Assembly (NCBI GenBank): GCA_036785375.1
Contig: JAWMAR010000077.1
Span: 1,674,001-1,738,000, forward strand
Source of the DNA: Leucoraja ocellata
Lineage: Eukaryota
DNA length: 64,000 nt
Direction: 5' to 3'
Below the pieces are notes generated by a model that made no database searches, was not told where the DNA came from, and saw only the letters and a list, made by a program, of their open reading frames with translations. Positions 1-55,367 of this stretch are shown here, one piece after another. The translations under genes and the position numbers were made by a program. The first letter of the stretch is position 1, and each line of letters begins with the position of its first letter.

Positions 1-199
1 AGATTGTGATTGTGTTCTGCTGCGTCTTTGCCATATACGAGGATATCATCGACAATAATGGCACTAGGCAGGCCCTCGAATAGATGCTCCATGGCTCTCT
101 GGAAGACTTCACTTGCAGAGTTAATTCCAAACGGCATTCTCAGGAACTTATATCTGCGGAATGGGGTGGCAAATGTAGTGAGGCTTGATGACTTCTTGT

Positions 200-638
200 A
201 GAAACATAGAAACATAGAAATTTGGTGCAGGAGTAGGCCATTCGGCCCTTCGAGCCTGCACCGCCATTCAATATGATCATGGCTGATCATCCAACTCAGT
301 ATCCCATCCCTGCCTTCTCTCCATACCCCCTGATCCCCTTAGCCACAAGGGCCACATCTAACTCCCTCTTAAATATAGCCAATGAACTCGCCTCAACTAC
401 CCTCTGTGGCAGAGAGTTCCAGAGATTCACCACTCTCTGTGTGGAAAATGTTCTTCTCATCTCAGTTTTAAAGGATTTCCCCCTTATCCTTAAGCTGTGA
501 CCCCTTGTCCTGGACTTCCCTAACATCGGGAACAATCTTCCTGCATCTAGCCTGTCCAACCCCTTAAGAATTTTGTAAGTTTCTATAAGATCCCCTCTCA
601 ATCTCCTAAATTCTAGAGTATAAACCAAGTCTATCCAG
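200..638 (-). mobile_element. 5'-truncated CR1 LINE inserted in the Gypsy RT
   Basis: CR1 ORF2 C-terminus (LEFRRLRGDLIETYKIL...QRVVNLWNSLP), short tandem tail AGAAACAT repeats at 200-218, and target duplication TCTTGT at 194-199 and 639-644. Confidence 0.92.
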
Positions 639-1730
639 TCTTGTCCAGCGGTATCTGCCAGAAAGAGTTCTTAGCATCAAGAACAGAAAATAGGGTGGCC
701 ATTCCGACCTTTGTCGCAACATCCTCCACGGTCTTCATGGGATGGTGTGGGCGCTTAATGGCAGTATTCAGGTCTTTCGGGTTGATGCACAGACGGATTT
801 TGTTCTTTCCCTTCTTGAATGTGGCAATCATGGTCTCGACTCAGTCGGTGGGGTCGCTGACTGCTTCAATTACGCCCATGGAGGTCATGTCCTTCAGCAT
901 AGAGTGAACCCTGTCAGTCATGGCAAATGACAATCGGTGTGGGGCTCGGATGACGGGCGTCACATCGGGACCAGTAGTAATCCTGTAAATCACGGGCAAG
1001 CTGCCTCGGTTGTTGTCGAAGGGATCAGGAAATTCACTCAGCGGGTCAAACGAAATTTGTAATTAATGGACAGTTTTGTCAAAGGAAATCAGCCCCAGCT
1101 CTTGACAGGCACGATTACCAAGCAGGGTGGCTGAGTCAAAGTTCAGGATATAAAAGGTTAAAACCCTCGTGGATCTTTTCAGTACACATCTCAAGTTGGT
1201 TTTGCCCAGAGGAACCAATACCTTCCCTCCGAAAGCATGTAAAGTGGACCTGTCCTTGATAAGAGGCTCGTTAGTTCTAATTTTGTTGAAAAGATTGATT
1301 GACATTGTGTTTACCTTGGACCCCGTGTCTAATTTCGCGCCAAAGACCACATTGTTTACTGATATCATCACGGGCGGTTCTGGATTCCTCATGGCTAATT
1401 GCTGCAGAGAGTAGATGGGGTTAACAAAATCATCTTGAGAATTAATTGGGCTGTGGGCTGGAACAGCTGTGAGCTGGTAATTGTTGGGAGTAACAATGTT
1501 GCTGTCTAGTCGCAAAAAATTGAGATTAGACTTGGAGCTTGGCGAATCCCTCCCCCTAGCACGGATTGAGGCCCTACACACTGAAGCAAAGTGGGTTGGG
1601 TTTTTTTTGCAGTAATTGCATGTTTTCCCGAGGGTGGGGCAGGCTGATTGTCTGTTGTGTAAGTAATTGCAGTTAGGACATCTCTGCTGCGGACCGCTGC
1701 GAACCGCCTGACTAGCTTGGGTTGTAAATC

Positions 1731-1790
1731 GAATAGAATAGAATAGTTTCTTTACTGTCATTGTAACATGAACCATGTACAACGAAATTT
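1731..1790 (-). mobile_element. Very short retroposon 3' tail inserted in Gypsy gag
   Basis: (AATAG)n tail flanked by a duplicated AATCG; it interrupts the gag frame. Confidence 0.55.
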
Positions 1791-1985
1791 AATCGCCTGT
1801 TATCTGTGTTTGTTCGCTGCCTAGTGGAGCCCATCTCATTGATTGTTTTTGTTTCATGCGAGCCTTCTATGGGGTCGATGAATTCAGCAGTTCTGCATGC
1901 GTGCACAGCTTCATCAACCGTCAAATCTGTCCGTCTCAGAAGCTCTGATCTGAGCTTTAAATCGCTCATGCCATTCGCTAATATG

Positions 1986-3026
1986 TAGCAATGTTACAAA
2001 ATTTTGAGATTTAAAAAATCAAGTCTGTAATTTATCCCATCAGATAAAGCATAAAAAGAAGTTTAATTTGGCACCTAATTCACTTTCATATCTCAAGTAT
2101 TTAAAAGGTTATGGCCATTTTCATACTCGGAAATTAGCATCTTGTTCCCTATTGATTTTCTATGGACATAACAAAAAAGCTGTGATCGTGAACAGTCAAA
2201 AGCACATAACCTTCTTAAAAATTAAGAGAACTGAATGAAATTTTCAGTTATCATAGATTGAACCATTCTGAAACAAATATAAAATAATCTTACTTGGATG
2301 ACCTGAAATTAAAGCATATAATTAGTTAGTTACCCACTTGTAGCTAATTTCAAACTTCAATTACTAGATCTAAACATCTATCCATTTCTTAATAAATGAT
2401 TAACATTTTTAAATAGCCTAAGTGTCCAAATAATATTCACAAATAATTCACAATAAAACATGATTTTTAAATCTCATTTGCATTAATTTATAGGCCAAAT
2501 GGAACGAATTTAGTGTTCAATTGCTGTGAATTAAAGTCCATTTTAAATCAGCTTTCTAGTGGGATCCTGTGAACCCACTGATTTAGAACGTTCACATTGC
2601 GGTAGATTTGTGCCCTCAAATGCCCAGAAAAATACTGCGGGATATAATGGGCCCAAAATTAGCTACTCGCAATATTAAACTTTGTATAAAGTGATCTTAA
2701 GAAGCCCTTTTTAATGTAAAAATATACTGCTACTCTTCAGATTTCTGCTCTATAGACCCAGCTGGTTGCGAGCCGTCAGGGGTTTAGAGTTTAATTTTTA
2801 ATCTACTATAGCACTTAGGAAAAACTCGTAAAACTAATAATAGCTCATGTGAGGGAACCTACCAGCGAATTTTCGTTAATAATTAACTAGGCTGAACAAA
2901 CTCGATTTGAACAGCCTAGAGAAAATCGCGTTTTAAACCCGCCCCCCTCTAAACGGCGTCAAAATCGAGCACACGGGCTGGGGCAGATTTTCAACGACGC
3001 TTCAGGTACGCTTTGCAACGTACCTA
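1986..3026. mobile_element. Non-autonomous DNA transposon (~1.04 kb) inserted in Gypsy gag
   Basis: Duplicated TAATATG at 1979-1985 and 3027-3033. Imperfect TIRs TAGCAATGTTACAAAA versus TAGGTACGTTGCAAAG. Removing the insert restores the gag frame TRDILANGMSD. AT-rich with no ORF. Confidence 0.8.
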
Positions 3027-3571
3027 TAATATGTCCCTCGTTAGCTGATCAGTTAGCTGATCAATCGGAAATAGTTCTAACCGACCATGTTGGGCTATAC
3101 ACATCAAATCAGAAATAAACGAGTCTGCCCTTTCGCCAGGGAGCTGACGATGAGAGAAGAACCATGCCCTATCCAAAATGTGGTTAGAGGGCAGGTCACA
3201 GATCTGGCTCAGTTTACGTAGCAGGACATTGGGGTCGTCAGGAGATTCTGCTGGGGTTATTACCTGACCGTTGGCATCGCAGACCGCTGGAGCATAGCGG
3301 AATGTTCTTGACCGACGAAGGGCAGCTGGACCCGCAAGGTTGAGCAGGAGAGAAGCTTTGACAGCATCTGGTTCATTTCGGTGTGCAATGTTCATGTAGT
3401 GCTGGTAGTCGAGTTCAAACGTAGCCCAGCGTTCGCTGATATCTACATCAAAGACAAGAGGGTCAGGCTTTCGACGAGAGGAGGCCATCGTAAAGTAAGA
3501 CAAAACTCCCCAAAATGATTTAAAAAAAACCCATTATACAGAAAATGAGGGTCAGACCACTTCTGACGCCA

Positions 3572-6173: not shown

Positions 6174-6201
6174 AGTTATTATGAGCTGATTTAATGTTGT
6201 G
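6174..6201 (+). promoter_or_regulatory. 12-RSS of J-gamma 1 (degenerate)
   Basis: Nonamer AGTTATTAT (6174-6182), exactly 12-bp spacer, heptamer TGTTGTG (6195-6201) retaining the essential GTG next to the coding end. Confidence 0.6.
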
Positions 6202-6260
6202 GTATGTGAGCGATGGACAACCATGGTGTTTCGGATTTGGAATCAAACTGGCTGTAGCAG
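6202..6260 (+). CDS. TRGJ: TCR gamma J segment 1 (YVSDGQPWCFGFGIKLAVA)
   Basis: FGXG motif followed by KLAV, phase-1 donor AG|GTACAC at 6260/6261, upstream 12-RSS, and typical length (59 nt). Confidence 0.75.
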
Positions 6261-7296
6261 GTACACGTGATTCAACCTGCATCCCGACCCTCGCTTGAAC
6301 ATTTTACTAAGCACTTGTGAAAATGTAGTCATCATTGTGATGTAGAACCCGCAGCCTGGATCATGGTGAGGACCATTCATTCTTTATTTGTCACGTGTTT
6401 CAGGGGTAGCTATTGATGAGGAACGCCCATTGCTGCTCCTTCAAATAATGTTTGCGTGGAGTTTCACGTAAGGTTATAGAGCTGCTGCCTCCATATTCCA
6501 ATGAACCCGATCTCCAGTGCTGACTGTGTGGAGTTGTCACGTTCTCCCTGTGACCGCGAGATTTCTGACGGGTGCTCCGCTTTTCTCCCACATCGCGAAG
6601 ACGTGCGGGTGGTAGGGTGATAGCCCACTGCAGAAATTGCTCCGACTGTGAGGTGAATGAGAGAATCTGGTGGGAGTTGGTGGGAATGTGAGTCGAACAA
6701 GTGGGATCGATGTGGGATTTAGAATCAATGAGTGCTCGATGGATTGTTTGGACCAGGAGGGCATACGATGCTGTTCAAAGCTCTTTCCCACCACGACCAA
6801 GACAACGAGGAGACCGCTGTCGATGCCCCACACTCTTTGTCCGGCTCCGAATCTTTGTTCAATTTTTCTGGACTTGCCCATGAGACCGAGGGTTAACGGG
6901 TCGAGTTACGAGCTACGTGTTGCTGCAGATTGCAGCGTGGGAATTTCCATCCAATCAGGAAATCATCGGATCACCCAACTCTCACTGAGGACGTGGGTAT
7001 TTTACAGAAGATTGCTTGAATCTGGCTGACCCAGGTACGGGGATTTACCGAGATGAACTAGTTCGCTTAGCGTGTAAGAAGGAATGGCAGATGCTGGTTT
7101 TACCCGAAGATAGACACATTGAAAGACTTTGATAGACACATTGATAGACCCTTGAAAGGTCTCGACCCGAAACGTCATCCATTCCTTCTCTCCAGATATA
7201 CTGCCTGTCCCGCTGAGTTACTCCAGCTCTTTGTGTCTATCTCAGTTCAGTTAGTGACCGACAGGTGCCGGGGCCGGTGCCTGTGTTGGGGCGCGA

Positions 7297-7324
7297 TGTT
7301 CTTGACAGACGGTGTAACACCGTG
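7297..7324 (+). promoter_or_regulatory. 12-RSS of J-gamma 2
   Basis: Nonamer TGTTCTTGA (7297-7305), 12-bp spacer CAGACGGTGTAA, heptamer CACCGTG (7318-7324). Confidence 0.88.
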
Positions 7325-7381
7325 CGACCTCTAATGGGTATATAAAGATATTTGGCACTGGAACCAAACTCATCGTCACAG
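7325..7381 (+). CDS. TRGJ: TCR gamma J segment 2 (TSNGYIKIFGTGTKLIVT)
   Basis: Classic TRGJ signature YIKIFGxGTKLIVT, phase-1 donor AG|GTGAGT, 12-RSS. Confidence 0.95.
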
Positions 7382-7508
7382 GTGAGTCTTTGAACATGAC
7401 CGAACCCCCTGGGACACACGAGATAAACCGGATAACTAGCGAGGATTGTTGGGCGAAAGGTTTGGGAGAGGGGAGGGAGGTTCGCGCGGTGCAGATTCGG
7501 GGCCGGGA

Positions 7509-7536
7509 GGTTATTGTACATGCACTGAACACCGTG
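7509..7536 (+). promoter_or_regulatory. 12-RSS of J-gamma 3
   Basis: Nonamer GGTTATTGT (7509-7517), 12-bp spacer ACATGCACTGAA, heptamer CACCGTG (7530-7536). Confidence 0.93.
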
Positions 7537-7593
7537 CCACATCTGGTACATGGAGGAAAATATTCGGCAACGGGACTCGGCTTATCGTCACAG
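7537..7593 (+). CDS. TRGJ: TCR gamma J segment 3 (TSGTWRKIFGNGTRLIVT)
   Basis: WxKIFGxGTRLIVT TRGJ signature, phase-1 donor AG|GTAGGT, 12-RSS. Confidence 0.95.
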
Positions 7594-8029
7594 GTAGGTC
7601 TGGGGTGGGGGGCATCCAGGAGCAGGGGTAGACTGCAACTCTTCGAGAACTGTCGGGAAAGGTTGGAGGGAGGGTGGGAGAGGGTTGGGGGGGGGGGGTG
7701 GCAGCAGAGGGTACGTGGAGGGGGCATGAAGAACAGAGAGTGCGGGAGGGCTTGCAGCAAGGGGTTGTGTGCTCGCTTTCCACAAGAGAAAACTCCGTGC
7801 CCCCATCCGCAGACTTGTACATCGGTTCCCGGGTGCTATATTGATGCAATGGTTTGGGGGCGGAAAGTGACGGACTAGACTGACTGACACCAATTTTAAT
7901 CTCCTCACTGGGTATTTAGCGGCTCCTGTCATGAGATTTTCAGCATTCGGCGCCACTGAGAGGTATCCCTGCGGCGTGTCCCTATCATTTATTGTGAATC
8001 TTGTACGAAGCCAGATTTGCTCGAGAAGA

Positions 8030-8123
8030 TAGACACAAAGTGTTGGAGTAACTCAGCGGGTCAGGCAGTATCTATGAAGAAAAGGGATAGGTGACGTTTC
8101 GGGTCGGGGCCCTTCATCAGACT
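8030..8123 (-). mobile_element. Penelope-derived short repeat with hammerhead-like core
   Basis: Minus strand reads CTGATGA-AGGGCCCCGACCC-GAAACGTC-ACC. Same family as copies at ~7155, 15400, 31370, 36870-37110, 53423 and 61160. Confidence 0.7.
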
Positions 8124-10419
8124 CTGCTCGAGAACAGCTGAACGGGAGTGACCCGCGAGTATCTCCGCCATAAACATTAAAAATACGATGCAGGAAATTA
8201 AAATAGAAAATTCAGTAGCATTCCGAAAGTCAAACAGTAACTGTGGAAAGAGAAATAGAGTTAATGTTACAAATTGAGGATGCTTCTTCGAATTAAAAAG
8301 TTAACTCTGTTTCTCTATCCCGCCGTTTTGTATTTTAATGTCACAAAGCAGTCTGTGCACCATCAAGAATCAACCGGTTATGGAACGTCACAACTTGTTG
8401 CAGATTGTTATAGTAATCTGTAGTTTATTGATTCAGAATATCTGCTAAAGCTGGTTGTGTGGCTGCTGCTTGGATAGTATTTCTGGCCGCTGAATCACAC
8501 GGTGAGGCTGGGTTTTTGATAACGGCCCTGTTGTTGGAAGGGCACGCTACTGGTTGGTGCTAAGTGGCCGGGATATCGAGGTGTAGTTCAGATTTTGGCA
8601 GCGGTGGCGTTCCGCACGTCTTCAGATCCAACACCTGTTGTAGAGATCACACCCCGAACGATTTAACACCAGCTTCAAACATAACCGCTGTCGAAGTTCG
8701 TTATTAATTTGCATTGAAAATGGCAGAAGATTTAACCGACTTTACAAAATTGGGTTTCAGTGAGACTATCTGGGCTCTTTGACGGCGAACAACTGGTGAA
8801 TTGCGGATGTCGAATGTCTTGCGAATCCTTGTGATCGCCAAAAGTGCTCTTTATGTTCCGTAGCCGCTTGTACACAAGGTAGCCCGGGTATAATTTGACC
8901 AGGTTGTCAGTTTGAAGTCTGGGGTTGCAAACCCCAGAGAGATGGTTGAGAGGAAAGGAAAGAAAAAAAAAACAGGACCGGTCTTCAGGCAGAGGTTGTA
9001 TCGGGATTTCCAGCTGAGTAATTCGCCCGGTTCAGAAATTGATTCATTTCTTTTAGTGGAAAGTCCAGATTTGCTGCTACCCAAGATATTAAACCGTTAA
9101 TTCGACCGAGTTATAGCTTCTGTGAACTGCAATGGCACTAGTTCTAAATTGAAAATGCCGGACAGTAAAGATGTGGAGAAATGCCTCCCCTGGGATCCAG
9201 GGAAATACGGGAATTTGGACTAAATTGTGCTCGATAATATGAGGTATGGGCGGTAATGGAACGGTATTTATCAAATTGGAAGCCTGTGATTAGTGCCTGG
9301 ACCTTTGTTTTTTGGTGGATATGAATAGCGAGTTAGCTGCCGACACCAAGGTCGATAGTGTTCTGAATGGTGAGGATATTTCTACTGTTATACAACGACA
9401 TCCACCATTCATCAGATGTGCAAAGGAATGGCTAATGCAATTTAATACTGGATCAAAAATGAAATAATATATTCTGGGACTATTAAGGCTAGGACAAAGC
9501 CAACGATTGACGGGACCAGTGAATGTATTGAGGAATCGTAGGGTGGCCGTGCACATGTCTAGGGGCCCCTATAACCAGCAACGCGGGTTATTTGTAGTTA
9601 GGAAGACAAGTTGCCTTCATCAGCCGGGGTATAGAATATAAAAGCAGAGAGATAATGATACGTGTATATAAAAGACTAGTTAAGACACCGCTGGAATATT
9701 TGTGCATATTTCGGTCGCCGCGCATGGGAAAAACACGGTTGCTCATGAAGGATGCAGTAGAGGTGTAGCTTGGGACGAAACAGTTGAGTTAAGAGAGGAA
9801 AATGGAGAGGCTGGGTTCATTCCACTGGGAGTTGAGACAGATGATGCGGGACCTGTTTGACGTACACAAAATGTGGTGGTACATTGGCCGCGTAGGTAAA
9901 CCAGTGCCCACAATAGGAGTGCATTTATTAATAATAAAGTGTTGAAGGCGATATGAAGGAAAAAGTGTCACTCAAATGGTGGTTGAAATCTGGAATGCAC
10001 AGCCCGAGAAGGGTTCGTGGCGACAGGGCCTCTCGTTGTCAGGGAAGTTATTAGGTGAGCAATGAAAATGCGCGCCAAGTGCTGGCAAATCGGATTAGCA
10101 AAGATATCTAATGGCGGTCAAATTCGCGGTACTCACAAGTCCACTGTATGACTTTGAGGACAAGGACATTCAGGTGTTAAATCTCTTTCCACAGCCCTTT
10201 AAATCCACCCAATCTCCTGCGCTCCCAGAATTGGAAGCACTTGCCTGTTTAATCTGAACATTGCTATAATTTTAAATACTCTCATTATGTTTATTCTTTG
10301 CAAAGTGAATCCCCTCAGATTTGTCGGTGTTAAATTTCTAACTGTTTTCTCCAATCTGCAGCCGCTGATTTTCAGTGCGAATATTGGAATTTCTAATCAC
10401 ATTTATATTTTACATTCAG

Positions 10420-10737
10420 ATGTACCACCCAGAGCTCCGAAAATCCGTCTTTTCCCGCCGTCCGCCACTGAGCTGAAAGCCAATAGCAAGTCCGTTGCGG
10501 TCTGCCTGATTACCGACTTCTTCCCCGAGGTGATCAAGGTCGAGTGGAAAATCGATAAAGAGAAGCAGGAGGCGAAAGTCCAGACGGATTCGGTGACGAA
10601 AATGGGGACAAACACTTATTCGCTGATTAGCCGACTCGTTGTCACCAAGCTACAATGGGAGTCGAAAACAATTTCTTGCCACGCGAAACATGAAATCGAC
10701 GTCGCAGAATTATCGATTACAAGGCATTCCAAATACG
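10420..10737 (+). CDS. TRGC: TCR gamma constant region exon 1 (Ig C1-set domain)
   Basis: Polypyrimidine tract plus CAG acceptor at 10417-10419. Encodes DVPPRAPKIRLFPPS...AVCLITDFFPEVIKVEW...TYSLISRL...ISCHAKH with the canonical Cys, Trp and Cys. Donor G|GTACTA. The 318-nt exon is phase 1 to phase 1. Confidence 0.95.
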
Positions 10738-11016
10738 GTACTATCCTCCGCGCCGACGCCAATGTGGCAGAATATTTGCAAATCCACTTAATTCCCCAGC
10801 TCTCCCAAATTTAAATCTTAGACCAGCCACTTCCAAGTGCAGCCCTTTACCCCCCCCCCCCCCCCATCCCCCCCCCCCGCCCCCAATAAGCAGCGATAAT
10901 AACAATACATAGCTGCTCCCCAAATAATGCTCACGCTGGATCAACGGAATGAAGTTTCCCGCCAGACTCGCTCCTTTCCCTCCGACCCTCTTTCCCATTC
11001 GTACCGTGCGTCGGTC

Positions 11017-11400
11017 ATAATAATAATAATATAATAATAATAATAATGATAATAATAATAATAATAATAATAATATATTTTATTGTCATTGCACATAAGT
11101 GCAACGAGATTTGGTATGCAGTTTCCATCCGACGTCATAACATAAATAACTAATACAATTTGGATTTAGATACCCCGAGAAACATGGTTTGTAAAAAGAA
11201 CAGTAAAACAGTCAAAACAGTTCAACAGACTAAAGTGCAGATGTGTCTGTGCGACGTGGCCATCCGAGGGAGACGGTCCAGGGAGGATGGGGGGCACTCA
11301 GCAGGCCCGGTTCAGAGCCGCTATAGCTCTGGGAATGAAGCTGTTCCTGAGTCTGGAGGTTCGGGCGTAGAAGGCCTTGTAACGTCTGCTTACAAGGCCT
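11017..11400 (-). mobile_element. Truncated LINE 3' end with long (TTA)n microsatellite tail in C-gamma intron 1
   Basis: (TAA)n at 11017-11075, followed by TTTTATTGTCATT (polyA-signal-like end on - strand) and LINE-like sequence (FRNSFIP). Confidence 0.65.
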
Positions 11401-11784
11401 TGTAACCCAATACTCACAACATAATTCTGGTGGGGTTACACTCTTTTATTTCTAATTTTATATAACCACGACAATTACTTTCTATATAAATATATACCAA
11501 TACCATCTAACAATAATACTCTTTTTTTTGTAACTACGTCGCATCTGATATCGCCGACAACAGATGTACCTTCCTGTTTCATGCTATATATGTGAATTTA
11601 GATCCAGATCTAGGATTCGGTCTAGTGTTACAAATGCACCGAGAAATACCCTCACAAGTGAAATTCAGAGCGGAAATATGGCAACCTTTCACTGGAGAGT
11701 CATTTAATTTCGCAGTTCTCCCAATAGTAACAACGGCAGAATGGCCGGGGGGAAAGAGGAAACACAAAACCGTCTCACAAATAG

Positions 11785-12025
11785 GGCGGCAGGTGGTGGA
11801 ATTGCTGCCTTAGAGCGCCACAAACGCGGGTTCGATCCTGACTAGGGGAGTTGTCTGCACCGAGTTTGTACGTTCTCCTTGTGGGTTTTCTCCGGGTGCT
11901 CCGGTTTCCTCTCACACTCCAAAGACGTCCAGGTTTCTTGGTTAATTGGCTTCGGTAAAAACATGTACATTTCCCCTGGTGTATAGGATAATGTGATCGT
12001 TGGTCGGCGGGGACTCGGTCGGCCG
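11785..12025 (+). mobile_element. tRNA-derived SINE (HE1/V-SINE-like)
   Basis: B-box GGTTCGATCC and conserved core GGGTTTTCTCCGGGTGCTCCGGTTTCCTCTCACACTCCAAAGACGT. Other copies at ~6500-6700, 27160-27310 (-) and 52617-52760 (-). Confidence 0.8.
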
Positions 12026-12563
12026 AAAACTCCGATCAGCTGATAAGGTTATTGGCTGCAACCTTCCCACCATTGACAAACTGTACACTGCAAGGGTTAG
12101 GAGGCGAGCGGATAAGATCGTCGCTGACCCCTCTTGCCCTGGCCACAAACTCTTTGAATCACTTCCCTCTTGCAGGCGACTCCGGAGTCAAAGCTGCCAC
12201 AGCCACACATAAAAAACAGTTTTTTTTCCACGAGTAGTAGCTCTACTCAATAACCAAAAATCTGCAGCCTCCGTTTGCTCTGTATTTTATTTAATTCACA
12301 TGTTTCATCGATAATGTTTTATTATTAATGTGTAATGTTTTATATGTCATTCCTAACTGTCACTGTATGTCATGTTGTCACTTGCGGGGGAACCACCAAG
12401 GTAAATTCCTTGTATATGAATATCTATATGAATTCGAAAAGCCCATTTCTGCGGGGACGGGTTTTAAATATAATTCGTTTTAACTTTAAAGCGTAAATGC
12501 GAAAATCCTCTGAATTTGTCGATATTTCTAATGAATGTTTCTGTATTTCTTTAAACCACTTAG

Positions 12564-12641
12564 CTGGTGCCATTGCTGGTAAGTCAGTGGGTCCCACCTG
12601 CCCGCCGATCGTCCAGGAAAATCAGGAGAACACGGAAGAAG
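12564..12641 (+). CDS. TRGC: TCR gamma constant region exon 2 (connecting peptide with interchain Cys)
   Basis: TAG acceptor at 12561-12563; AGAIAGKSVGPTCPPIVQENQENTEE; donor AAG|GTAAAT; 78 nt, phase 1 to phase 1; lies between the Ig and TM exons. Confidence 0.85.
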
Positions 12642-13396
12642 GTAAATCCTGTTTTAAATCAAACCATGGTCCGCGTATTATGCGGCTCCTGGTCTGGTCA
12701 AATATCGTAGCCTCTCAAATGGTGACACTACAGCTTAATAAATCTGCCGATTACCAGCACAGGGAAATAATCAACTCTATCTTTACCTTGTGACGGGACG
12801 GGGCGGTTCATGTAATGTCCTTAGAAAGAGCAAGGTGAGGGCAAATGTCTCCAATCGGCTGACCCCCACTGTCAATTGAAGCGGCTTAGATAGGTATCCA
12901 GCAATATCCATTTGTGGACAGAAATGAAAGAAAGACCCACTTATTGTAACAGGTTGCCCAGAAAATCAGCATTAGAATGGAACGGACACAAATAAACTGG
13001 AATGTATTTTGACATTTTAAAATATAAATCCGCAGTGTAACACAGTTGAGGCAACAGTCAACACAGAAAGATACACAAGTTAAATGCAAGATCAAACTAT
13101 CCAGTACTTGTTGAAGAAATGAAGAAAATGAAAACTGAAGGAAATAGTTATATTCCGTGCACGTACAAGAGCGAGGACTATGAAAAGGAATAGAAATAGA
13201 TTAGCAAATATGTAGAGAGGGTCAATTGAAAAGGCAATTAGAAACGCCAACATTAAGTTAAACAGCAATGTAAAACAAATAAAGAAGTTTGCAGACACAT
13301 AAGAACGACCGAAGCTACCAAGACACTGGAGATAGTCATTGGGTCACAGAAACAAGCCATCACCCCGTCGATCACTGTCAATAAGGGGCACATCTT

Positions 13397-13458
13397 CAAG
13401 GTGTCAAGGTCAGTTTATTGTCACGTACCAATTAAGGTACAGTGAAATTCGAATGACC
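13397..13458 (-). mobile_element. 62-bp retroposon tail with perfect 16-bp target-site duplication
   Basis: ATAAGGGGCACATCTT at 13381-13396 and 13459-13474; internal TTTATTGTCAC end motif. Confidence 0.8.
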
Positions 13459-14171
13459 ATAAGGGGCACATCTTGATACACTCACCCAAGAAAACATCAA
13501 AGTAGAACAATATTTTTAACATCGCTTTGCCCACGTACTTACAAAAATGTAAATTGGTTGAAATAACACGAGAATAAATCACATAAGAAAATGAACACGT
13601 TTAAGAAATAAGTTATTAAATAATGAATTGGGAGTCTGTTGGCTCACGTGAATTATACCTGCGCATGTTAAAAGTTGGGGAAAGGATGGCAGACAAACCA
13701 TTACATACATGTAGACATGTATCATTAAAGGACATTTCTATTTTAAGACGTCCACGAAATTGTAATTTAAAAAAAGCAACACGAACACGAGCATGAACTA
13801 GTTGGGTATACGTTCCTGGTTATGTGCTGTACATAATACGTCCATATTCAGAAAACTCAACACCATCATTGAATATGTATGGTGACATTAATTTCGAGCA
13901 TGCTTTCGCCTCTTGTACCAGCAAAGCAGGTAAACATTACATTCATTCAACATTACATCCATCTTGAATAGAAAATATGCCAAATTGAGTCACTGGGAAG
14001 GTGACATTGCTGGAGACATTTGCCCACGCTTTGGCTAAGCTTATTTTTACAGTGGCGTTATCTGCGCATTCGCTTCGAAAAACACCAAAATATATCTGTA
14101 AATTCTTAGAATCATAATTTCTGCTAATAAACCGGAAGCTGACGATTTTTACATTTTCCAATTTCACCTAG

Positions 14172-14305
14172 GAATATCGGCGAGCTCACTGCAGGTCGCG
14201 ACGTTGACATATACCATTCTGTTGATGAAGAGTGTGTTATACTGCGGCATCATCTCGTGCATACTTTACAAGATGGAATACTGGGGCACGAAGAAGCCAT
14301 TGTAA
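14172..14305 (+). CDS. TRGC: TCR gamma constant region exon 3 (transmembrane and cytoplasmic tail)
   Basis: TAG acceptor; GISASSLQVATLTYTILLMKSVLYCGIISCILYKMEYWGTKKPL* contains the gamma/beta-type YxxLLxKSxxY TM motif with a single Lys; stop TAA at 14303-14305. Confidence 0.95.
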
Positions 14306-14638
14306 CTCGTATTTTGTACATTTTGTACATTGTACATTTTGATAAATGTCTTCCATGTCATTGTAAGCTTCAGTCTATGTCCTCGTTGCGTACAAAGGGA
14401 TTGTACATCCTGTTGCAAAATATGTGTTGGCTTGTAAGAGGCTAATGAAGGCCGCGTGTTGAAGCTTATATCCAGGTGATTACAGAGCAAAATACAGAGA
14501 ACGAGCAGCGTTAATCTAATGCCAGATAGACTGTTGTGGGGGTACCGGTTAGTTGTTCATCAAATCACTATTATTGCTGAATCCTTTTTGCTAGCATTTC
14601 AACGCCTTTGAAAAAATGTATCATTCTAGAAATCGAAC

Positions 14639-14644
14639 AATAAA
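14639..14644 (+). terminator. Candidate polyadenylation signal of TRGC (further AATAAA at ~14715 and ~14724)
   Basis: First AATAAA after the stop codon, about 335 nt downstream. Confidence 0.6.
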
Positions 14645-16986: not shown

Positions 16987-18470
16987 ATAGAAACATAGAA
17001 AATAGGTGCAGGAGTAGGCCATTCGGCCCTTCGAGTCTGCACCGCCATTCAATATGGCTGATCATCCAACTCAGTATCCTGTACCTGCCTTCTCTCCATG
17101 CCCCCTGGTCCCTTTAGCCACAAGGGCCACATCTAACCCACTTAAATATAGCCAATGAACTGGCCTCAACTACCTTCTGTGGCAGAGAGTTCCAGAGATT
17201 CACCACTCTCTGTGTGAAAAATGTTTTTCTCATCTCGGTCCTAAAAGATTTTCCCCTTATCCTTAAACTGTGACCCCTTGAAGTTGGACTTCCCCAACAT
17301 CGGGAACAATCTTCCTGCATCTAGCCTGTCCAACCCCTTAAGAATTTTGTAAGTTTCTATAAAATTCCCCCTCAATCTTCTAAATTCTAGCGAGTACAAG
17401 CCGAGTCTATCCAGTGTTACTTCATATGAAAGTCCTGACATCCCAGGAATCAGTCTGGTGAACCTTCTCTGTATTCCCTCTATGGCAAGAATGTCTTTCC
17501 TCAGATTAGGAGACGAAAACTGTATGCAATACTCCAGGTGTGGTCTCACCAAGACCCTGTACAACTGCAGTAGAACCTCCCTGCTCCTATACTCAAATCC
17601 TTTTGCTATGAATGCTAACATACCATTCGCTTTCTTCACTGCCTGCTGCACCTGCATGCCTACTTTCAATGACTGGTGTACCATGACACCCAGGTCTCGT
17701 TGCATCTCCCATTTTCCTAATCGGCCACCATTCAGATAATAGTCTACTTTCCTGTTTTTGCCACCAAAGTGGATAACCTCACATATATTCACATTCTACT
17801 ACATCTGCCATGCATTTTCCCACTCACCCAACCTATCCAAGTCACCTTGCAGCCTCCCAGCATCCTCCTCACAGCTAACACTGCCCCCCCCCCCCCCCCC
17901 CCCCCCCAGCTTCGTGTCATCCAAACTTGGAGATGTTGCATTCAATTCCCTCATCCAAATCATTAATATATATTGTAAATAGCTGGGGTCCCAGCACTGA
18001 GCCTTAACCCTAACCCCACTAGTCACTGCCTGCCATTGTGAAAAGGACCCGTTTACTCCTACTCTTTGCTTCCTGTCTGCCAGCCAGTTCTCCATCCACA
18101 TCAATACTGAACCTCCAATACTGTGTGCTTTAAGTTTGTATACTAATCTCTTATATGGGACCTTGTCAAAAGCCTTCTGAAAGTCCAGATATAACACATC
18201 CACTGGTTCTCCCTTATCCACTCTACTAGTTACATCCTCGACAAATTCTATAAGATTCGTCAGACATGATTTACCTTTCATAAATTCATGCTGACTTTGT
18301 CCAATGATTTCACCATTTTCCAAATGTGCTGCTATCCCATCTTTAATTACTGACTCTAGCAGTTTCCTCACTACCGATGTTATACTAACTGGTCTGTAAT
18401 TCCCCGTTTTCTCTCATCCTCCCTTTTTAAAAAGTGGGGGTACATTAGCTACTCTCCAATCCTCAGGAAC
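16987..18470 (-). mobile_element. 5'-truncated CR1 LINE
   Basis: ORF2 RT pieces (17799-18371, 17241-17792) with frameshifts; 3' UTR and tail ATAGAAACATAGAAA as in the 200-638 copy. Confidence 0.92.
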
Positions 18471-21830: not shown

Positions 21831-22876
21831 TGGGGTTCATGGGTTTTTGGACAATAATGGAATTGGAAGAAATAGAGATGGGTAGAGAAAATGCAGATAC
21901 AGTAGTGCATCAGCCATGGTCCTAATGTATTTTGGAGCAGGAATGACCCATTCTTTCTTATTTCTACGTTCCTACATTCTGGGGGAATTAGTCGGGGTAC
22001 ATTAAAATAATATAATTTCACTTTAAACAATGAGTTGAAGTGGTGTGGAATTCATTAGTTGAAATCAAATGGGAGTGTATTCGATCGTGAAAAGGGAATT
22101 AGATAAGCATAGGAAAGAAAAGTAGTACGTGCTGCGACGATATCTGTGTAAGTGTTTAGAAGTGCCATGTGGAACAAATATTTTACACAACGGCAAACGG
22201 TTATTTTAACTGTTCACAGCATGCCACTTCCTCTGCATTAGCAGATATCTGATTAACCGTCCGCGAAGTTGACAAAACAGGAAATAATGTTCATTTAATC
22301 GTAAACTTTAATCTTCAGCTCTTAGCCTAGTTATCAGATAGGCCATGGTTGAACCTATAGTCTCGCCCATCTTTGTTGTTGTTACTTGAGACTTGACATC
22401 TTTCTGCCACGAATACCTAACACATTTGTTTATTCTTCTCCTACTTCCTCCCTGCCTCACTCACCCTCCCTTAAAACATGTTAAAACATGGGGACATTAG
22501 CGCCATGTCAATATACACTTTTATCTTTAGGCTTTAGTAGGTTATGTTCCAACACCATTGCAGAGACTTGAGTCCCTTTATCCAGGCTGACAATCTGGGA
22601 TGGTGCTCATGTGCTACAAGCGACGTCGTCTTTCTGAGCCCCTTTGGTCCACACGTGAACTTAAATAGAGTTCATACTACTACAACCTTTGAGGAGAGGG
22701 AAGTTATTTCGCGTATCGCAGCTAATATTTCAGTATTTATCCCCGTCAACATTCCGAAACAGAACATTTAGTCTGCATCATAATATTGTTTGCGAGAACT
22801 TGCAAAATGGGCGTTGTGCTTTATTTGAAGTGTGACTTCAATAAACATTTAATTCTTCTGTTATATTCTGTATATG

Positions 22877-38128: not shown

Positions 38129-39101
38129 ATACTCCAAATGTAGTTTGACCTAATGTAGTGCCTTATAAAACCTCAGCATCACCTCCCTGCATTTGTGTTC
38201 TAGTCCTCTCAAAATGAATGGTAACATTGGATTTGTCTTCTTCACTATAGATTCAAACTGTAAATGTTTTGGGAATCCTGCACCAGCACTCCCAAGTCCC
38301 TTTGCGCCTCTGATTTCTGAATTCTCGCCCCATTTAGAAAGTAGTCCACACTTGTATTCCTAAAACCAAAGTGCATAACTGCACATTTTGCTGTACTGCA
38401 GTCTATCTGCCACTTTGCCCACTTTCCCAACTTGCCCAAGTCCTCTTGCAGACTCACTGCTTCCCCTACACTACCTGCCACTCCACATATCTTCGTATCA
38501 TCTGCAGACTTGGCCACAAAGTCATCAATTCCATCATTCAAATCATTAACATAAAACGTGAAAAGTAGTGGACACACACCAACCCCTGCAGAACGTCACT
38601 ATCCACTGGCAGCCCACCAGAAAAAGCCACCTTTATTCACACTCTTTGCCTTCTGCCATTAAGCCAATCTTCTAGCCATGCTGGTATCTTCCCTCTAATA
38701 CCATGGGCTCTCATCTTGTTTAGCAGCCTCTTGGTTATAACACAAAACGACGCAAAGTGCTCCAGTAACTCAGCAGGTCAGCCTGACCCACTGAGGTAGT
38801 CTAGTACTTTGTGTCGTTTTATCTTAAAACTAGCACCAATACTGCTGGTCTGCACCAGTGAACCCATCTTCAGCAGCTGCCACACCGACTGGTTCTGGTT
38901 TGAATTTGTTTCTCATTCAAAAGATGGTACTGTAAGTTGAATATAGGTTGTAGATAAATCAAAAGACCAGACAGGCAACATTGAAAAGTGTAGACTTCAA
39001 TACTCGTGATTCATCTTTTATCAGGGCTTTGTATATCATCTGCTCTACCCAGTGTACTGAGGGATAGTACATTTAAAAGTAAATAGAGTAACTTTACTAA
39101 C

Positions 39102-39222
39102 TGTTTTCATCCTTTGCCTCTTGTGGCAAAACTTTAAAATCCAGAAACCACGTCTCGATCCAGGCCAGTATGAAGGAGATTATTGGCAGCAAATAGGCAA
39201 AGGCTGTACCTTCCATCAAGAG
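39102..39222 (-). CDS. STARD3NL: STARD3NL coding exon 5
   Basis: LLMEGTAFAYLLPIISFILAWIETWFLDFKVLPQEAKDEN; AG and GTTAGT borders; 121 nt. Confidence 0.95.
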
Positions 39223-39324
39223 CTAAAGTGAAATCAGACATGTTTAGGTCAAAGAAATTAGCTGCAGGTATATCTCAGCATAAATCTTTTGGACAGAACG
39301 CAAGTTTCAATGATTACTTCATAC

Positions 39325-39378
39325 CTTGGAAATGATGACCTTTGCAATTAGAAAGGCACTGGTAACAGCAGTTGTAAC
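39325..39378 (-). CDS. STARD3NL: STARD3NL coding exon 4
   Basis: VTTAVTSAFLIAKVIISK; 54 nt; AG and GTATGA borders. Confidence 0.95.
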
Positions 39379-39539
39379 CTGGAACAGAAGAAGCATTCTC
39401 TGTTACAGCAGAGTTCGGGCTATGAAAACTTTTACACCTAATCGCAAATGTTATTTGAATGAAGGCATATTTACAGTGAAAAGGGAACTCAAGGAAAATA
39501 AACCATAAAGAGTAAGCTACCACAATGTGATAAGTTTTA

Positions 39540-42490
39540 ATCTGCAATTTGAAGGAGAGAAGGCGATATTGGATGTGTCAGTATCGCAGCTGGCCAAAAG
39601 GGGACTACAGAGGCATGAGGGAGGAGCTGGCCATAGTTGACTGGAAAAGGACCCTAGCAGGGATGACAGTGGAACAGCAATGGCACGGATTTATAACCAT
39701 ATAATAATATAACAATTACAGCACGGAAACAGGCCATCTCGACCCTTCTGCCGAACACATAATCTCCCCTAGTCCCATATACCTGCGCTCAGACCATAAC
39801 CCTCCATTCCCTTCCCATCCATATAACTATCCAATTTATTTTTAAATGATAAAAACGAACCTGCCTCCACCACCTTCACTGGAAGCTCATTCCACACAGC
39901 CACCACTCTCCGAGTAAAGAAGTTCCCCCTCATGTTACCCCTAAACTTCAGTCCCTTAATTCTCATGTCATGTCCCCTTGTTTGAATCTTCCCTACTCTC
40001 AGTGGGAAAAGCTTTTCCACGTCAACTCTGTCTATCCCTCTCATCATTTTAAAAACCTCTATCAAGTCCCCCCTTAACCTTCTGCGCTCCAAAGAATAAA
40101 GCCCTAACTTGTTCAACCTTTCTCTGTAACTTAGTTGCTGAAACCCAGGCAACATTCTAGTAAATCTCCTCTGTACTCTCTCTACTTTGTTGACATCCTT
40201 CCTATAATTAGGCGACCAAAATTGTACACCATACTCCAGAATTGGCCTCACCAATGTCTTGTACAATTTTAACATTACATCCCAACTTCTATACTCAATG
40301 CTCTGATTTATAAAGGCCAGCACACCAAAAGCTTTCTTTACCACCCTATCTACATGAGATTCCACTTTCAGGGAACTGTGCACAGTTATTCCCAGATCCC
40401 TCTGTTCACCTACATTCTTCAATTCCCTACCATTTACCATGTACTCCATGGATTTCTGGGAATAATCCGGAAGATGCAGGATCTTTTCATTCCAAAGAGG
40501 AAGAAAGATTCTAGGGGGAGAAAGAGGAAACCGTGGCTGACAAGGGAAGTCACAGACAGAATAAAACTAAAAGAGAAGGCGTATAACATAGCAAAGTTTA
40601 GTGGGAAGCCAGAGGATTGGGAAGCTTTTAAATAACAGAGGGTAACTAAAAAGACAATAAGGGGAGAAATTAAGAAATACAGATGTAAGCTAGCCAATAA
40701 TATAAAATAGGATAGCAAGAGTTTCTTCAGTTATATAAAGAGCAAGAAAGAGGCAAGAGTGTCCATTGGACCGCTGGAGAATGATGCAGGAGAAGTGATA
40801 ATGGGGAATAAAGTAATGGCAGAGGAGTTGAATAACTTTTTTTGCATCAGTCTTCACAGTGGAAGACACCAGCAATATGCCTGAAATTCAAGAGAGGCAG
40901 GGAGTCAAAGTTAGTGGTGGCTATTTCTAGGGAGAGGATGCTTGGGAAGCTGAAAGGGCTGAAGGTGGATAGGTTACTTGGGCCGGATGGACTGCACCCT
41001 AGGGTTCTGAAAGAGGTGGCTTTAGAGATTGTGGAGGCATTGATAGTGATATTCCAGGAATCACTAGAATCAGGAGGGGTCGCAGATGACTGGAAAATTG
41101 CCAATATTACCCCGCAGCACAAAAAGGGAGCAAGACAGAATAGTGGGAACTTTAGGACAGTTAGTCTGACTTTGGTGGTTGGTAAGATTTTAGAGTCCAT
41201 TATAAAGGATGAGGTTACGGAGTTATGAGAAGTTCACGATAAAATAGCCCAAAGTCAGCATGGCTTTGTGAAGGGGAAGTCTTGCTTGACATATTTGCTG
41301 GAATTCTTTGAAAAAGTAAATAGCAGCTCAGACAAAGGAGAGTCAGTAGATGTTGTTTACTTAGATAAGGTGCCACACGTTAGGCTGCCCACGGTATCAA
41401 AGGGCAGATACAAGCATGGATAGCAGGTTGGCTGGATGACAGAAGACAAAGAGTGGCAATAAAGGGGGCTTTTTCTGGTTGGCTGCCAGTGACTAGTGGA
41501 GGTTCGCAAGGGTCAGTGCTGGGGCCGCTACTCTTCACATTTTATATTAATGATTTGGACGAAGGGATTGAAGACTCTGTGACCAAGTTTGCGGATGATA
41601 CGAAAATAGGTGGCGAGGCAGTTAGTGCAGAGAAAGCAGGGACTCTGCAGAAGGACTTGGACAGGTTGGGAGTGGGCAGAGAATTGGCAGATGGAGTATT
41701 GTGAAGCAAAGTGTGCAGTCATGCATTTTGGTACTAGGAACAATGGCGTAGACAATTTTCTAAATGGGGTGAGAATCCTGAAATCAGAGGTGCACAGGGG
41801 CTTGGGAATGCTAGTGCAGGATTCTCAAAAAGTTACTCTGTAAGTCGAATCGGTAGCAAAGAAAGCAAACACAATGCGAACGGCATTCATTTCAAGAGGG
41901 CTTATATACAAAAACAGGGAAAAACAGAGGCTCTATAAAGCGCTGGTAAGGCTGCCTTTGGAATATTGCGAGCAATTTTGGGCACCATATCTGACGAAGG
42001 ATATACTGGCTCTGGAGAGGGTCCAGAGGAGGTTTACAAGAATAATCCAGGAATTAGTAGGTTAACCAATGATGCGCATTTGTCGGCACTGGGCCTGTAC
42101 TCGCTGGAGTTCAGAAGAATGAGGGGGGGACCTCATTGAAACATACAGAATAGTGAAAGGCTTGGATAGAGTGGATGTGGAGAGGAGTTTCCACCAGTGG
42201 GAGAGACTGCGACTAGAGGTGATAACCTCAGAATTAAAGGACGTTCTTTTAGGAAGATGAGGAGAAATGTATTTTGTCAGAGGGTGGTGAATCTGTGGAA
42301 TTCTTTGCCAAGTCAAGTCAGTGAATATTTTTAAGGCAGAGATAGATTCTTGATTAGTAAAGGTGTCAGAGGTTATGGGGAGAAGGAAGGAGAATGGGGT
42401 GAGGAGGGAGAGATAGCTCAGCCATAATTGAATGTCACAGTAGACTTGATGGGCCAAATAGCCAAATTCTACTCCTATTCCTTATGAGCT
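39540..42490 (+). mobile_element. Long decayed CR1 LINE
   Basis: ORF2 remnants KPWLTREV, GPDGLHPRVLKE, QGSVLGPLLF and KFADDTK with many stops; interrupted by a younger CR1. Confidence 0.9.
39693..40445 (-). mobile_element. Young 5'-truncated CR1 nested in the older CR1
   Basis: Open 226-aa ORF2 C-terminus, very similar to the 22877-24192 copy. Confidence 0.92.
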
Positions 42491-42933
42491 TATATAAAAA
42501 CAACCTGGTGCTCTACCATTTCTAATACGCCCGCTGTCTCCAACATGTTCAGGCTGCTCTGTTGTCTATACAGTGGGAAAACAACATTTGGAGGAAATTG
42601 CTAATGTTCTCATCCAACAGATCATTGTTATTGATAATTAGTTGTCAGGATACAACGTCTATAATCACCTTGTATTAGACTTGCCTTTGTAACCAGGCAA
42701 AAGGCAAGTTTATTGCTCAAGTGATTGTAGAGAATATATCCTTTTGGACAGTTGTCAATGTGGACAGTTAGCACTAAGACCTTGATTCTTTTCCCTGCAA
42801 GATAGTGCCATAACCTAAAAATCAGATGTGTACAATATTTTTCAAATTTTTGCCTGATTTGAAAAGAGTCGTGTTTCTGGGCTACATTTAATAGGTCAAT
42901 TTCCTATCATAACAGCCGAGAAGAGTCACTCAC

Positions 42934-43011
42934 CGCGATCACCCACCAATGGCGTAACCTACACAGTGCGTATGCAAAAATTAGCATAAAGAATCGAAAT
43001 ACTGCCAGTAA
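42934..43011 (-). CDS. STARD3NL: STARD3NL coding exon 3
   Basis: LLAVFRFFMLIFAYALCRLRHWWVIA; 78 nt; AG and GTGAGT borders. Confidence 0.95.
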
Positions 43012-43104
43012 CTGCAAAAACAAAGAGAGATAGATAAAACTCACACCAGATTTAGAATGGAGCATTTAGCAAGTTCTTCAAGGGAAATGAGAACATTTAC
43101 TCAC

Positions 43105-43182
43105 AAATATATCGAAGTAAGAGTGTTGGAAATTATAATTAATAACTTCATTCTTTAAACTATTAATTATGCCTCCATCTAC
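43105..43182 (-). CDS. STARD3NL: STARD3NL coding exon 2
   Basis: VDGGIINSLKNEVINYNFQHSYFDIF; 78 nt; AG and GTGAGT borders. Confidence 0.95.
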
Positions 43183-45335
43183 CTAGAAAACGTAAAAAGA
43201 AAGATAAGTAGAATCACTTTGTCAACAGTTGTTCTTGAAACTGAGTGAAATAATGTTACATCTAGAAATGTTTGGTAACTATTTTTAAATTTAAAATGTG
43301 GATCAAATACACATAACAATTTTTACCACTCAAAGTGACACCACTTTATTAATAATTATTTCAACAAAATTAATGTGTTCTGTTTGTGAAATTCTAAACA
43401 GTGCTGTGATTCACAGCAAGAAAACAGGCCCTTCAGCCCAAGTCGTCCATGCTGATCACGATGCTCCATCTAAGCTAGTCCCCATGTCTGTGTTTGGCCC
43501 ATATCTCTCTAAACCTTTCCTCTCCATACCTGTCCAAGTGTGTGTTTAAATGCTGTTATAGAACTTGTCTCAACTGCTGAACCTGAAGGGCTACTTTTCC
43601 AATCAGAGGGTGGTTCTCCATATACCCACCACCCTCTGATTGAAAAAGTTGCCCCTCAGGTTCATATTAAATATTGCCCATCGCGTCCAAATGCAATACA
43701 TCTCAGTTATTTGCATTAAGCCCCATAAGCCCCATTCCGCAGCCCTCTTGGTGAGATGATGAAGAGCCTGCTGTAATTTTTAATAACCTTTTGCATTATC
43801 TACGATACCACCTACTTTAATGTCAGCTGTAAACTTACTAAATCTTGCTTTGTACATTCTCATCCAAATCGCTGTCACACCTCTCGCCACAGGTCTCTAG
43901 TCCGAAAAACAGTCTTTTACTGCCACCGTTGCCTTCCTTCCATTAAGCAAATTCTGTGTCCAGTTTGCTAGATCTCCATGGATCTCATTGATAATATTGG
44001 CCAAATAAATATGTCACAAAATGGAGGATCTCTGCATTTGCAAAGCCTGCTTGTTCTCCTTCTGTAAAAAGCTGCAGGGCCATAAGTCATGGCTCCAGGG
44101 TGTCTGGACCCTGGGAGGAAGTAAGTACAAGATGATGTCCAGATGTTCTCCCTATTGTTAATATGTATGAGGGTTTTGCAGAAAGAGCTGGGCAGGGTTG
44201 CAAATGCATGATCAAGATTGGTTATAGATTGGGGTGTTGTAAAGTATTGTTAATTATGTTGTAGAGTGTTTGTGCTGTTATCTTATGATTGGTCAACGTA
44301 TGGAGCCTTGTTCAAATTGTTTATACTACCTGGGGAAATGTTTCTTTACTTTGGTGAACTGTCTTCTATGGAAATAATGTAATGGGATACTTTGTGATTG
44401 GGTTAGGGAACTGTCAATAAATGTATTATATGATCTTTATTTGTGATTAGCTTTTAGAGGTCCCCCCCCCCATATAGTTTTGCACCACAGGGAAAACTAC
44501 AGTCATAGGATTGAACTTGGGTCTCTGGCGTAGTTCGGCAGCAAGTCTACCACTGCGTCACCATGTCACCCAGTACAAAAAAATGAAAGTAGGAAATCGG
44601 CTCAACTGCAAAATTGAAAGCAAAGGTTCCCGGAATATTATAAAAGAAAATAAATCAGATCCACAAAAAAAATCATGTTGTGCAATTCTGGTCAACTAAC
44701 TACTGAAATAAAGTTGCTGGCTGAAGATCATAGGGAAAACAGAATTTACTGTCAGGAGAAACAGAGATAAAACTGCAAAAGTCTTCAGTCACAGACCAGC
44801 AGAAGAATTTACACATAATTCGGTTTACAACTCTTTCTCAACAAAGAGCAAGGATGCTAATGGTGTGGAACCAGGATAGAAAAGGGAACAGGGGTAGAAA
44901 TATCAACACAAAGCTGATAAATACAGAAGTTATCTATAGTTTACTGTGACTTCCCAACAAAGTTACCATCATTAGATGAATAAAAACATGACCCGATTGT
45001 TATATCTGATTTTGCAATAACAAACTTTCTGACCAAATCATAGCTGACATTTAAAATATAAAATGAATATTCCTGACAAAGGCAGAAAACATAACCATAA
45101 ACTGTAGGCCTTGATCCCATCTGTTCCGAAGGAAAGCTTGTGTACAACTACTCTCCATCCATTTTTGGTGAGATCCTGCCCTCTATGCTTTCGCCACAAG
45201 CCAAGCCTCCCACTGACTCCTTCTCCCAGCTGTTACTTAACCCCACAATTAAATCCACAAGGTCATTTCAATAAACAACAGAATTATTAAAACCTGTTCA
45301 TCAGAATGCAAATCAATAAAAAGTTTAGTACTTAC

Positions 45336-45560
45336 ATTCAATTCGATTATCCACAACAAACCAACAAATAGTAGATCAAACGTAACAAATAAACAGAAAG
45401 TCCTCCTGACATCAGAAATATTTCTTTTACCAATTGGTTTATACGAGTCTAACCTAGCTGCAACTTGGGCTGCGGTGATGGATTGCATAGTACTGATGGA
45501 GGCACTGTGACCAAAGGAATTGACTCCAGCATTTTCCGGGCCAGTCGGCAATTTGCTCAT
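45336..45560 (-). CDS. STARD3NL: STARD3NL first coding exon (start of MENTAL domain); exon extends to 45609 with 5' UTR
   Basis: MSKLPTGPENAG...ISDVRRTFCLFVTFDLLFVGLLWIIELN|GTAAGT; acceptor TTTCGCAG at 45610. The spliced CDS totals 696 nt (231 aa) and has no START domain, so it is STARD3NL rather than STARD3. Confidence 0.95.
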
Positions 45561-55150: not shown

Positions 55151-55367
55151 CTTGAACCAAACACAAGATACCAAGGGCTGAATGTGGAGAGGGTATTTTT
55201 GCGTAGGTAAATTAACTTTCTGCATTGGGTTCAGAGCGCCCCAGCACAAATTGAGTGATAAAGGCTGTGCAAGAGTATGCCAAGAGAATGTGAATTAACA
55301 CAACAATAATTTATATTTATAAAGTGTAGAAACATATCCCAGATCACCACTCAAACATTAAAATTTG

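Follow-up and report, generated by a model that had tools for sequence, protein, structure and literature searches.

The window analyzed here, a stretch of 64,000 nucleotides (nt) from Leucoraja ocellata (GenBank assembly GCA_036785375.1, contig JAWMAR010000077.1, hereafter C77, positions 1,674,001-1,738,000), very probably holds the joining-constant (J-C) end of the gamma T-cell receptor (TCR) locus (TRG), and a twin of this region 240 kb upstream very probably represents the same locus on an uncollapsed haplotype, so that one locus with two alleles is present. The locus is assigned to gamma because its C gene has three exons, because its 3' neighbors are a STARD3NL-like gene and EPDR1, because its transmembrane (TM) exon and variable (V) segments match human TRG, and because a separate beta-like locus is found in the assembly. 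The twin is read as the other haplotype because the junction of the two copies coincides with a gap in the assembly and because one DNA sequencing run, X2, contains only letters of the upstream copy. The upstream copy is called copy A and the copy holding the window copy B; positions without a prefix refer to the window.

Segments and splicing of the locus

All parts of the locus that an initial annotation of the window had described were found where it placed them, namely, three J segments with an FGxG motif and phase-1 donors, followed by immunoglobulin (Ig), hinge, and TM exons in frame (Table 1). Each J is preceded by a recombination signal sequence (RSS) in the order nonamer-12-heptamer. 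When the J segments were assessed for a 12-bp RSS, the FGxG motif, and a phase-1 donor, J2 and J3 were clear, whereas J1 passed on motif and donor with an RSS of chance-level quality; RSSs of this grade occur in the flanking DNA at 0.32 per kb per strand. By itself, the RSS of J1 is therefore no better than chance, and, as its sequence is also atypical (Table 1), use of J1 is doubtful. The motif FGxG..[LVI].V with a correctly placed GT donor occurs six times in 658 kb (both strands), and all six are the three J segments and their duplicates. An FGSG at 8594 was ruled out as a further J, as it has neither RSS nor donor. Heptamer- and nonamer-like RSS pieces with no J attached also lie in the J-C intron at 8476-8519 and are probably due to chance.

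The C exons are bounded by AG/GT, and every J joins them in frame through to the stop codon (14303-14305); the coding part of exon 3 spans 14172-14305, carries the TM motif noted in the initial annotation, and is followed by AATAAA at 14639-14644. Splicing of C exons 1, 2, and 3 was observed in a contig of run X20, which is labelled as another organism and whose RNA status is the tool's guess. This single 450-nt contig runs from 10517 to 10737, goes on with a perfect match to the opening 30 nt of exon 2, and finishes in the stretch 14170-14298, an order which demonstrates that both C introns have been removed. Together, the X20 contigs cover the exon 3 region from 14170 to 14543.

The V segments with a 23-bp RSS that had been predicted to the left of the window, past a Gypsy element, were revealed by a scan of the upstream DNA. 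Seven V exons start at C77:1605332, 1615108, 1631399, 1632192, 1637350, 1651371, and 1662858, and all seven in copy B consist of an open V exon in the orientation of J and C, followed by a 23-bp RSS. Their distances upstream of J1 range over 17-75 kb, the RSSs of V7 and J1 being 17 kb apart, and V1 and the poly(A) signal bracket 83 kb. The seven share 30-66% mutual identity and fall into five similarity groups; their leader exons were spotted by eye. No further V was found in C77:1,080,001-1,348,000 or downstream to 1,938,000, and a 23-RSS-like site at C77:1609536 was not counted, as no V precedes it. A strict CTCF-core pattern matched in the 120 nt following none of the seven V RSSs. No diversity (D) segment candidate was detected in the 21,281 nt from V7 to C exon 1 with any 12/23 pairing at relaxed thresholds, a search of unproven sensitivity given that 15 kb of the beta-like locus also yielded none. 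In copy A, V4 (C77:1,393,868-1,394,161) has a 1-nt deletion and then a 1-nt insertion, both within base runs, reflecting either a null allele or an assembly error. The Gypsy element itself, mentioned in the initial annotation, is present as broken pieces on the minus strand; by eye, these are gag-, protease-, and reverse transcriptase-like, carry frameshifts, and are interrupted by a LINE-like piece, while a Pfam search of the open reading frames in this region gave no matches.

Evidence for a gamma chain

The exon count of the C gene was compared with that of the known chains. In the sections of PMC6491686 that treat these genes, TRGC has three exons and TRBC an added fourth. In line with the former, the C gene in the window stops in exon 3 and has no fourth exon, and the locus shows neither the D segment nor the four-exon C of a TCR beta (TRB) locus. 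Furthermore, it does not stop right after the C domain in the manner of an Ig light-chain cluster, the hinge and TM exons being spliced on. In a comparison with the PDB, 11 of the 14 matches to the TM exon were TCR-complex chains; nine were named gamma and none beta, with TRGC1 as the best. Of the 18 PDB matches to V6, 10 included a gamma chain or gamma-delta construct; among those to single domains, TRGV9 ranked best. The C domain was also compared with a protein database covering longer proteins only, where none of the 197 candidates scored.

The surroundings of the locus agree with this assignment. The STARD3NL-like gene, recognized by its MENTAL-domain exons, lies 25-31 kb beyond the C gene in inverted orientation, and an ependymin-family gene (EPDR1) comes next; none of 12 START-domain matches lies on C77. 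STARD3NL is given as the 3' neighbor of TRG in fish, amphibians, reptiles, and mammals in the relevant parts of PMC7349638, PMC12698447, and PMC8656973. Collectively, the three-exon C, the lack of D, the synteny, and the TM and V matches bear out the TRG identity proposed in the initial annotation.

Two assembled copies of what is probably one locus

The C exon of the window has a twin of 92% identity 244 kb upstream, which belongs to a repeat of the whole locus with its neighbors, in two copies of ~240 kb each that stand in tandem and in the same orientation on one scaffold. A 200-N gap (C77:1,588,636-1,588,835) directly abuts both copies, the end of copy A on one side and the start of copy B on the other; V5 is missing from copy A because of another gap within it. 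The copies diverge by 1.7% over 226,167 aligned nt, or by 1.4% over a stricter 210,636 nt. For comparison, five control pairs from the assembly were considered: three other doubled gene stretches diverge by 1.2, 1.4, and 3.0%, and the range leaves out the remaining two, of which one failed to align and the other consisted of light-chain-like clusters (6.7%). Ordinary neighbor genes (STARD3NL-like and EPDR1) are doubled along with TRG, and about 82 of 140 SH3 matches in the assembly occur in equal-score pairs (counted by eye). Contigs of run X2 carry copy-A letters at all 15 A/B sites that they cover (8135-10830), and the share of the window's sequence words present in X2 (0.81) is close to the 0.80 predicted for pure A.

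These findings indicate that the second copy most likely stems from the other haplotype, which the assembly did not collapse, and hence that the animal has one locus and two alleles. As outlined in PMC8081667, heterotype false duplication places diverged haplotype contigs end to end and mimics segmental duplication, a pattern that the two copies fit. A real tandem duplication, with two V-J-C gamma cassettes, diverging C domains, and an extra STARD3NL and EPDR1, would also place both copies on one scaffold in the same orientation, and it would accommodate 1.4-1.7% single-nucleotide variants (SNVs) plus many indels, which is high for alleles, as well as the eight residues by which C exon 1 differs; multi-cassette TRG loci have been reported in salmon, catfish, and mammals. 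Such a duplication is nevertheless quite unlikely, as the ends of the repeat coincide exactly with an assembly gap, a further gap within copy A removes V5, similar gene doubling is common across the assembly, and X2 shows only copy-A letters, where a true duplication would put both cassettes on one chromosome in every individual. The apparent second TRG locus, probably an assembly artefact, would mislead gene counts.

A separate beta-like locus

A second candidate TCR locus was found on contig C59. Its C domain is 34% identical to that of the window, it has a 12-RSS J and a near-identical single-Lys TM motif, and its TM exon is followed directly by a splice donor, which is the four-exon beta layout. 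Only one J and no D were seen in the 15 kb before its C exon. Matches of this C exon in the PDB were to antibodies and assorted C1 domains, one of the 60 listed being a TCR beta, and the TM exon had no matches. The 12-RSS J segments and the TM motif, which the initial annotation had offered as marks of gamma, are therefore present in the window but cannot separate gamma from beta, because the C59 locus has both; the separation relies on exon count, the missing D, synteny, and the V and TM matches. The alpha-chain TM segment has two basic residues, and that of the window has one. A TCR beta (or alpha) identity for the window locus is extremely improbable: beta shares the J 12-RSS, the V 23-RSS, and the single-Lys TM motif, and the C fold fits TCR beta chains no worse than anything else, but the locus has no D, a three-exon C, just three J segments, a STARD3NL-like neighbor, and TM and V matches to gamma, and the four-exon-type locus sits separately on C59.

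Several observations weigh against the reading of the window as TRG with a doubled haplotype. The protein-database search with the C domain returned no relative. The J1 RSS is by itself at chance level. The TM matches in the PDB are individually weak (E 0.08-2.7), and the best PDB matches of V7 are mostly antibody fragments. The C Ig domain by itself does not single out gamma, as its sequence and fold matches comprise antibodies, IgNAR, and TCR beta, and a gamma-delta TCR ranks no higher than 33. AMPH, the usual 5' neighbor, was not found on C77, in searches that are weak for short exons and located AMPH nowhere. With regard to the haplotypes, Logan contigs drop variants, and X1 and X2 accordingly show presence and not absence; in run X1, one unbroken contig has B letters in the patch described below and A letters at 10665 and 10756, a mosaic that could be a collapsed mixture. 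Finally, no J-C or V-J joint was found in the contigs, of which that of X20 begins only at 10517. The run index listed no RNA run as a holder of the sequence. Raw-read depth over the C exons is low in X9 (about 1-4) and almost zero in X7 and X13, and the joint table from raw-read mapping, dominated by repeats and a poly-C tract, is uninformative. Thus, the initial description of a functional TRG 3' end, with junctions to be confirmed in RNA, stands for the C-exon joints recovered in X20, though not for the J-C joint, and J1 is doubtful.

A variable patch in the constant domain

The two probable alleles differ in C exon 1, where 11 SNVs change eight codons, all of them replacements; the codons of exon 2 are identical, and exon 3 has one silent change. 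Nearly all of the exon 1 differences lie in a single hypervariable patch (Table 1). The 2.7-kb intron preceding the patch contains just four A/B SNVs, and the V exons differ by 0-5 SNVs (five V segments comparable without indels). Among 196,274 gap-free 27-nt stretches compared between A and B, the patch is the sole place with at least nine SNVs. In our reading of the predicted structure, residues 45-54 sit between the C-strand Trp and the D strand, and they are presumably exposed. Further versions of the patch were present in other runs. In a contig of X20, A and B letters are combined in a third way, and 24 nt are apparently repeated at the patch, which, being in one contig of depth 4.8, may be an error. 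A fourth version, with 3 nt deleted, belongs to a related organism in X5, whose differences amount to 29 of 450 nt around the exon, as against 80 of 2250 in the intron.

These results suggest that the alleles are probably kept diverse by selection, at eight C-domain residues of which seven lie in one connecting segment. The fuller proposal, that diversifying selection acts on C-gamma at the exposed residues 45-54, that several alleles segregate, and that species rapidly diverge there, is one that we put forward tentatively, at close to an even chance. A different origin of the patch, either in a single mutational event or in a loop that tolerates change under relaxed constraint, and not in selection for diversity, is a serious possibility, if somewhat below an even chance. 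Ten of the 11 SNVs fall within 27 nt, a cluster that a single conversion or repair event could produce, and loops tolerate change. In addition, the 11 of 11 replacements are modest evidence (about 0.04 by our estimate, if three-quarters of random changes replace), and only two full haplotypes were compared. On the other side, the four versions (A, B, X20, and X5) share differing subsets of the changes, which points to stepwise change or recombination, and both the excess of X5 differences around the exon and the singular density of the patch among the stretches compared speak against this origin.

Flanking genes and other features

The gap-free DNA 5' of V1 in copy A (C77:1,303,113-1,344,968) contains a Link-domain exon 22 kb from V1, CRTAP exons that match cartilage-associated protein (E 2e-17), and two FKBP exons, together 22-65 kb away. 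The Link-domain gene is presumably SUSD5-like, and we take the multi-FKBP gene to be FKBP9. BAR and SH3 searches gave no match on C77; the BAR matches considered as probes for AMPH were endophilin-like, none of them on C77, and YAE1-family matches sit on other contigs. AMPH is the conventional neighbor in bony vertebrates and serves as a marker rather than a defining part of TRG.

On the 3' side, a diverged second copy of the first MENTAL exon lies on the minus strand at 53579-53683, 8 kb past the intact exon and with a stop just upstream. It is probably a decayed local duplicate and is present in both assembly copies. Reverse transcriptase remnants occur 3' of C at 17802-18413, 22726-23718, and 53723-56360, and positions 49781-49908 are a run of 128 N.

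Elsewhere in the assembly, contigs C384 and C531 contain dozens of C1-set exons at 10-14 kb spacing, mirrored between the two contigs, which are likely Ig light-chain clusters and their haplotig. At 6.73-6.77 Mb of contig C6, there are two inverted light-chain-like clusters in which a 12-RSS and a J accompany a C with its stop directly behind the Ig domain. Such dispersed V-J-C light-chain-like clusters are compatible with a cartilaginous fish.

Table 1. Positions of the TRG elements and of related features (window positions unless a contig is given)
Feature	Position	Strand	Remarks
Broken Ty3/Gypsy-type retroelement	1..3533	-	Between last V and J1; both copies carry the element
J1 RSS, 12-bp spacer	6174..6201	+	Weak; mismatches: heptamer 3, nonamer 3; CAC retained
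TRGJ1, 59 nt	6202..6260	+	FGFG, Cys preceding Phe (atypical); phase-1 GT donor
J2 RSS, 12-bp spacer	7297..7324	+	Mismatches: heptamer 1, nonamer 3
TRGJ2, 57 nt	7325..7381	+	FGxG; phase-1 GT donor
J3 RSS, 12-bp spacer	7509..7536	+	Mismatches: heptamer 1, nonamer 1
TRGJ3, 57 nt	7537..7593	+	FGxG; phase-1 GT donor
TRGC exon 1, C1-set Ig domain	10420..10737	+	Pfam C1-set E 1e-18; model with mean pLDDT (structure-prediction confidence) 86, Ig fold
Hypervariable patch	10555..10581	+	10 SNVs A vs B; 7 amino-acid changes within positions 45-54
TRGC exon 2, connecting peptide (hinge)	12564..12641	+	One Cys; AG/GT ends
TRGC exon 3	14172..14644	+	TM helix with single Lys, short tail, 3' untranslated region
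MENTAL-domain exons, STARD3NL-like gene	39097..45416	-	Opposite to TRG; 3' neighbor
Copy A	C77:1,348,713-1,588,635		Whole TRG locus and neighbors
Copy B	C77:1,588,836-1,823,623		Whole TRG locus and neighbors; holds the window
TCR-beta-like J, C Ig exon, TM exon	C59:7,225,930-7,241,790		Donor after TM exon

Discussion

Based on the segments, their 23/12 signals, the lack of D, the exon structure, and the splicing of C, and for the remaining steps on known TRG biology, the locus would work as follows. RAG would join the 23-RSS of a V to the 12-RSS of a J, deleting the intervening DNA, and the transcript would be spliced from leader through VJ to C exons 1, 2, and 3, with the J donor joined to C exon 1. 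The resulting gamma chain would pair with a delta chain via the hinge Cys and assemble with CD3 via the TM Lys. Since the germline offers only 7 x 3 (or 7 x 2) pairs, junctional diversity and somatic hypermutation probably add most of the diversity; somatic hypermutation of shark gamma chains is reported in the portions of PMC5931798 and PMC7349638 that deal with it.

The variable patch is like the allelic variation that fish TCR constant domains show according to two 2004 papers (Criscitiello et al. 2004a, b, as cited in a section of PMC5931798), in that constant domains vary between alleles. A single hot segment would provide a testable site at which to study the open problem of constant-domain polymorphism in fish TCRs. 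The earlier cases reportedly concern teleost alpha and beta chains, unlike the present one, which involves the gamma chain, a cartilaginous fish, and one segment. If the proposal is true, the polymorphism known from teleosts extends to gamma chains and to the oldest TCR-bearing lineage, and the segment would hint that C-gamma is bound there by a host ligand or by a protein from a pathogen.

The layout of the window repeats that of the published shark TRG, and the finding is therefore a gain in annotation and not a discovery. A literature search, which included few subscription papers, returned no batoid TRG map, no study of C-gamma alleles for cartilaginous fish, and no 5' flank lacking AMPH; PMC3485050 and PMC10322711 contributed nothing further on the locus. 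The map of seven V, three J, and one C in the germline could be used for batoid repertoire and somatic-hypermutation work, and the different 5' neighbors bear on the ancestral position of TRG.

The closest known system is the TRG of the sandbar shark (Carcharhinus plumbeus), which has 5 V, 3 J, and 1 C (Chen et al. 2009, in the summary given in PMC7349638); this agrees with the three J and one C cited as precedent in the initial annotation. The present locus resembles it in being a single translocon that has no D, three J segments, a single C, and a small set of divergent V segments, and TCR translocons are general in cartilaginous fish according to a passage of PMC6795676. It differs from the sandbar shark locus in its seven V segments in five groups over 83 kb and in the weak RSS of J1. 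A gamma chain is already known from the clearnose skate, listed as AAB51498.1 in part of PMC12227049, and from the nurse shark, for which nine V genes were inferred from cDNA in the gamma section of PMC5931798, a V number in a similar range; those data are expressed sequences, whereas the present ones are from the germline locus. The assembled arrangement, with haplotypes placed end to end in one scaffold, is like the heterotype false duplications outlined in PMC8081667. Lastly, the locus shares with bony-vertebrate TRG the three-exon C and the inverted STARD3NL-like gene on the 3' side. Bony-vertebrate TRG is flanked by AMPH and STARD3NL, as far as the relevant sections of PMC7349638, PMC8656973, and PMC12698447 state; in contrast, the 5' flank in this skate is formed by a Link-domain gene, CRTAP, and a multi-FKBP gene.

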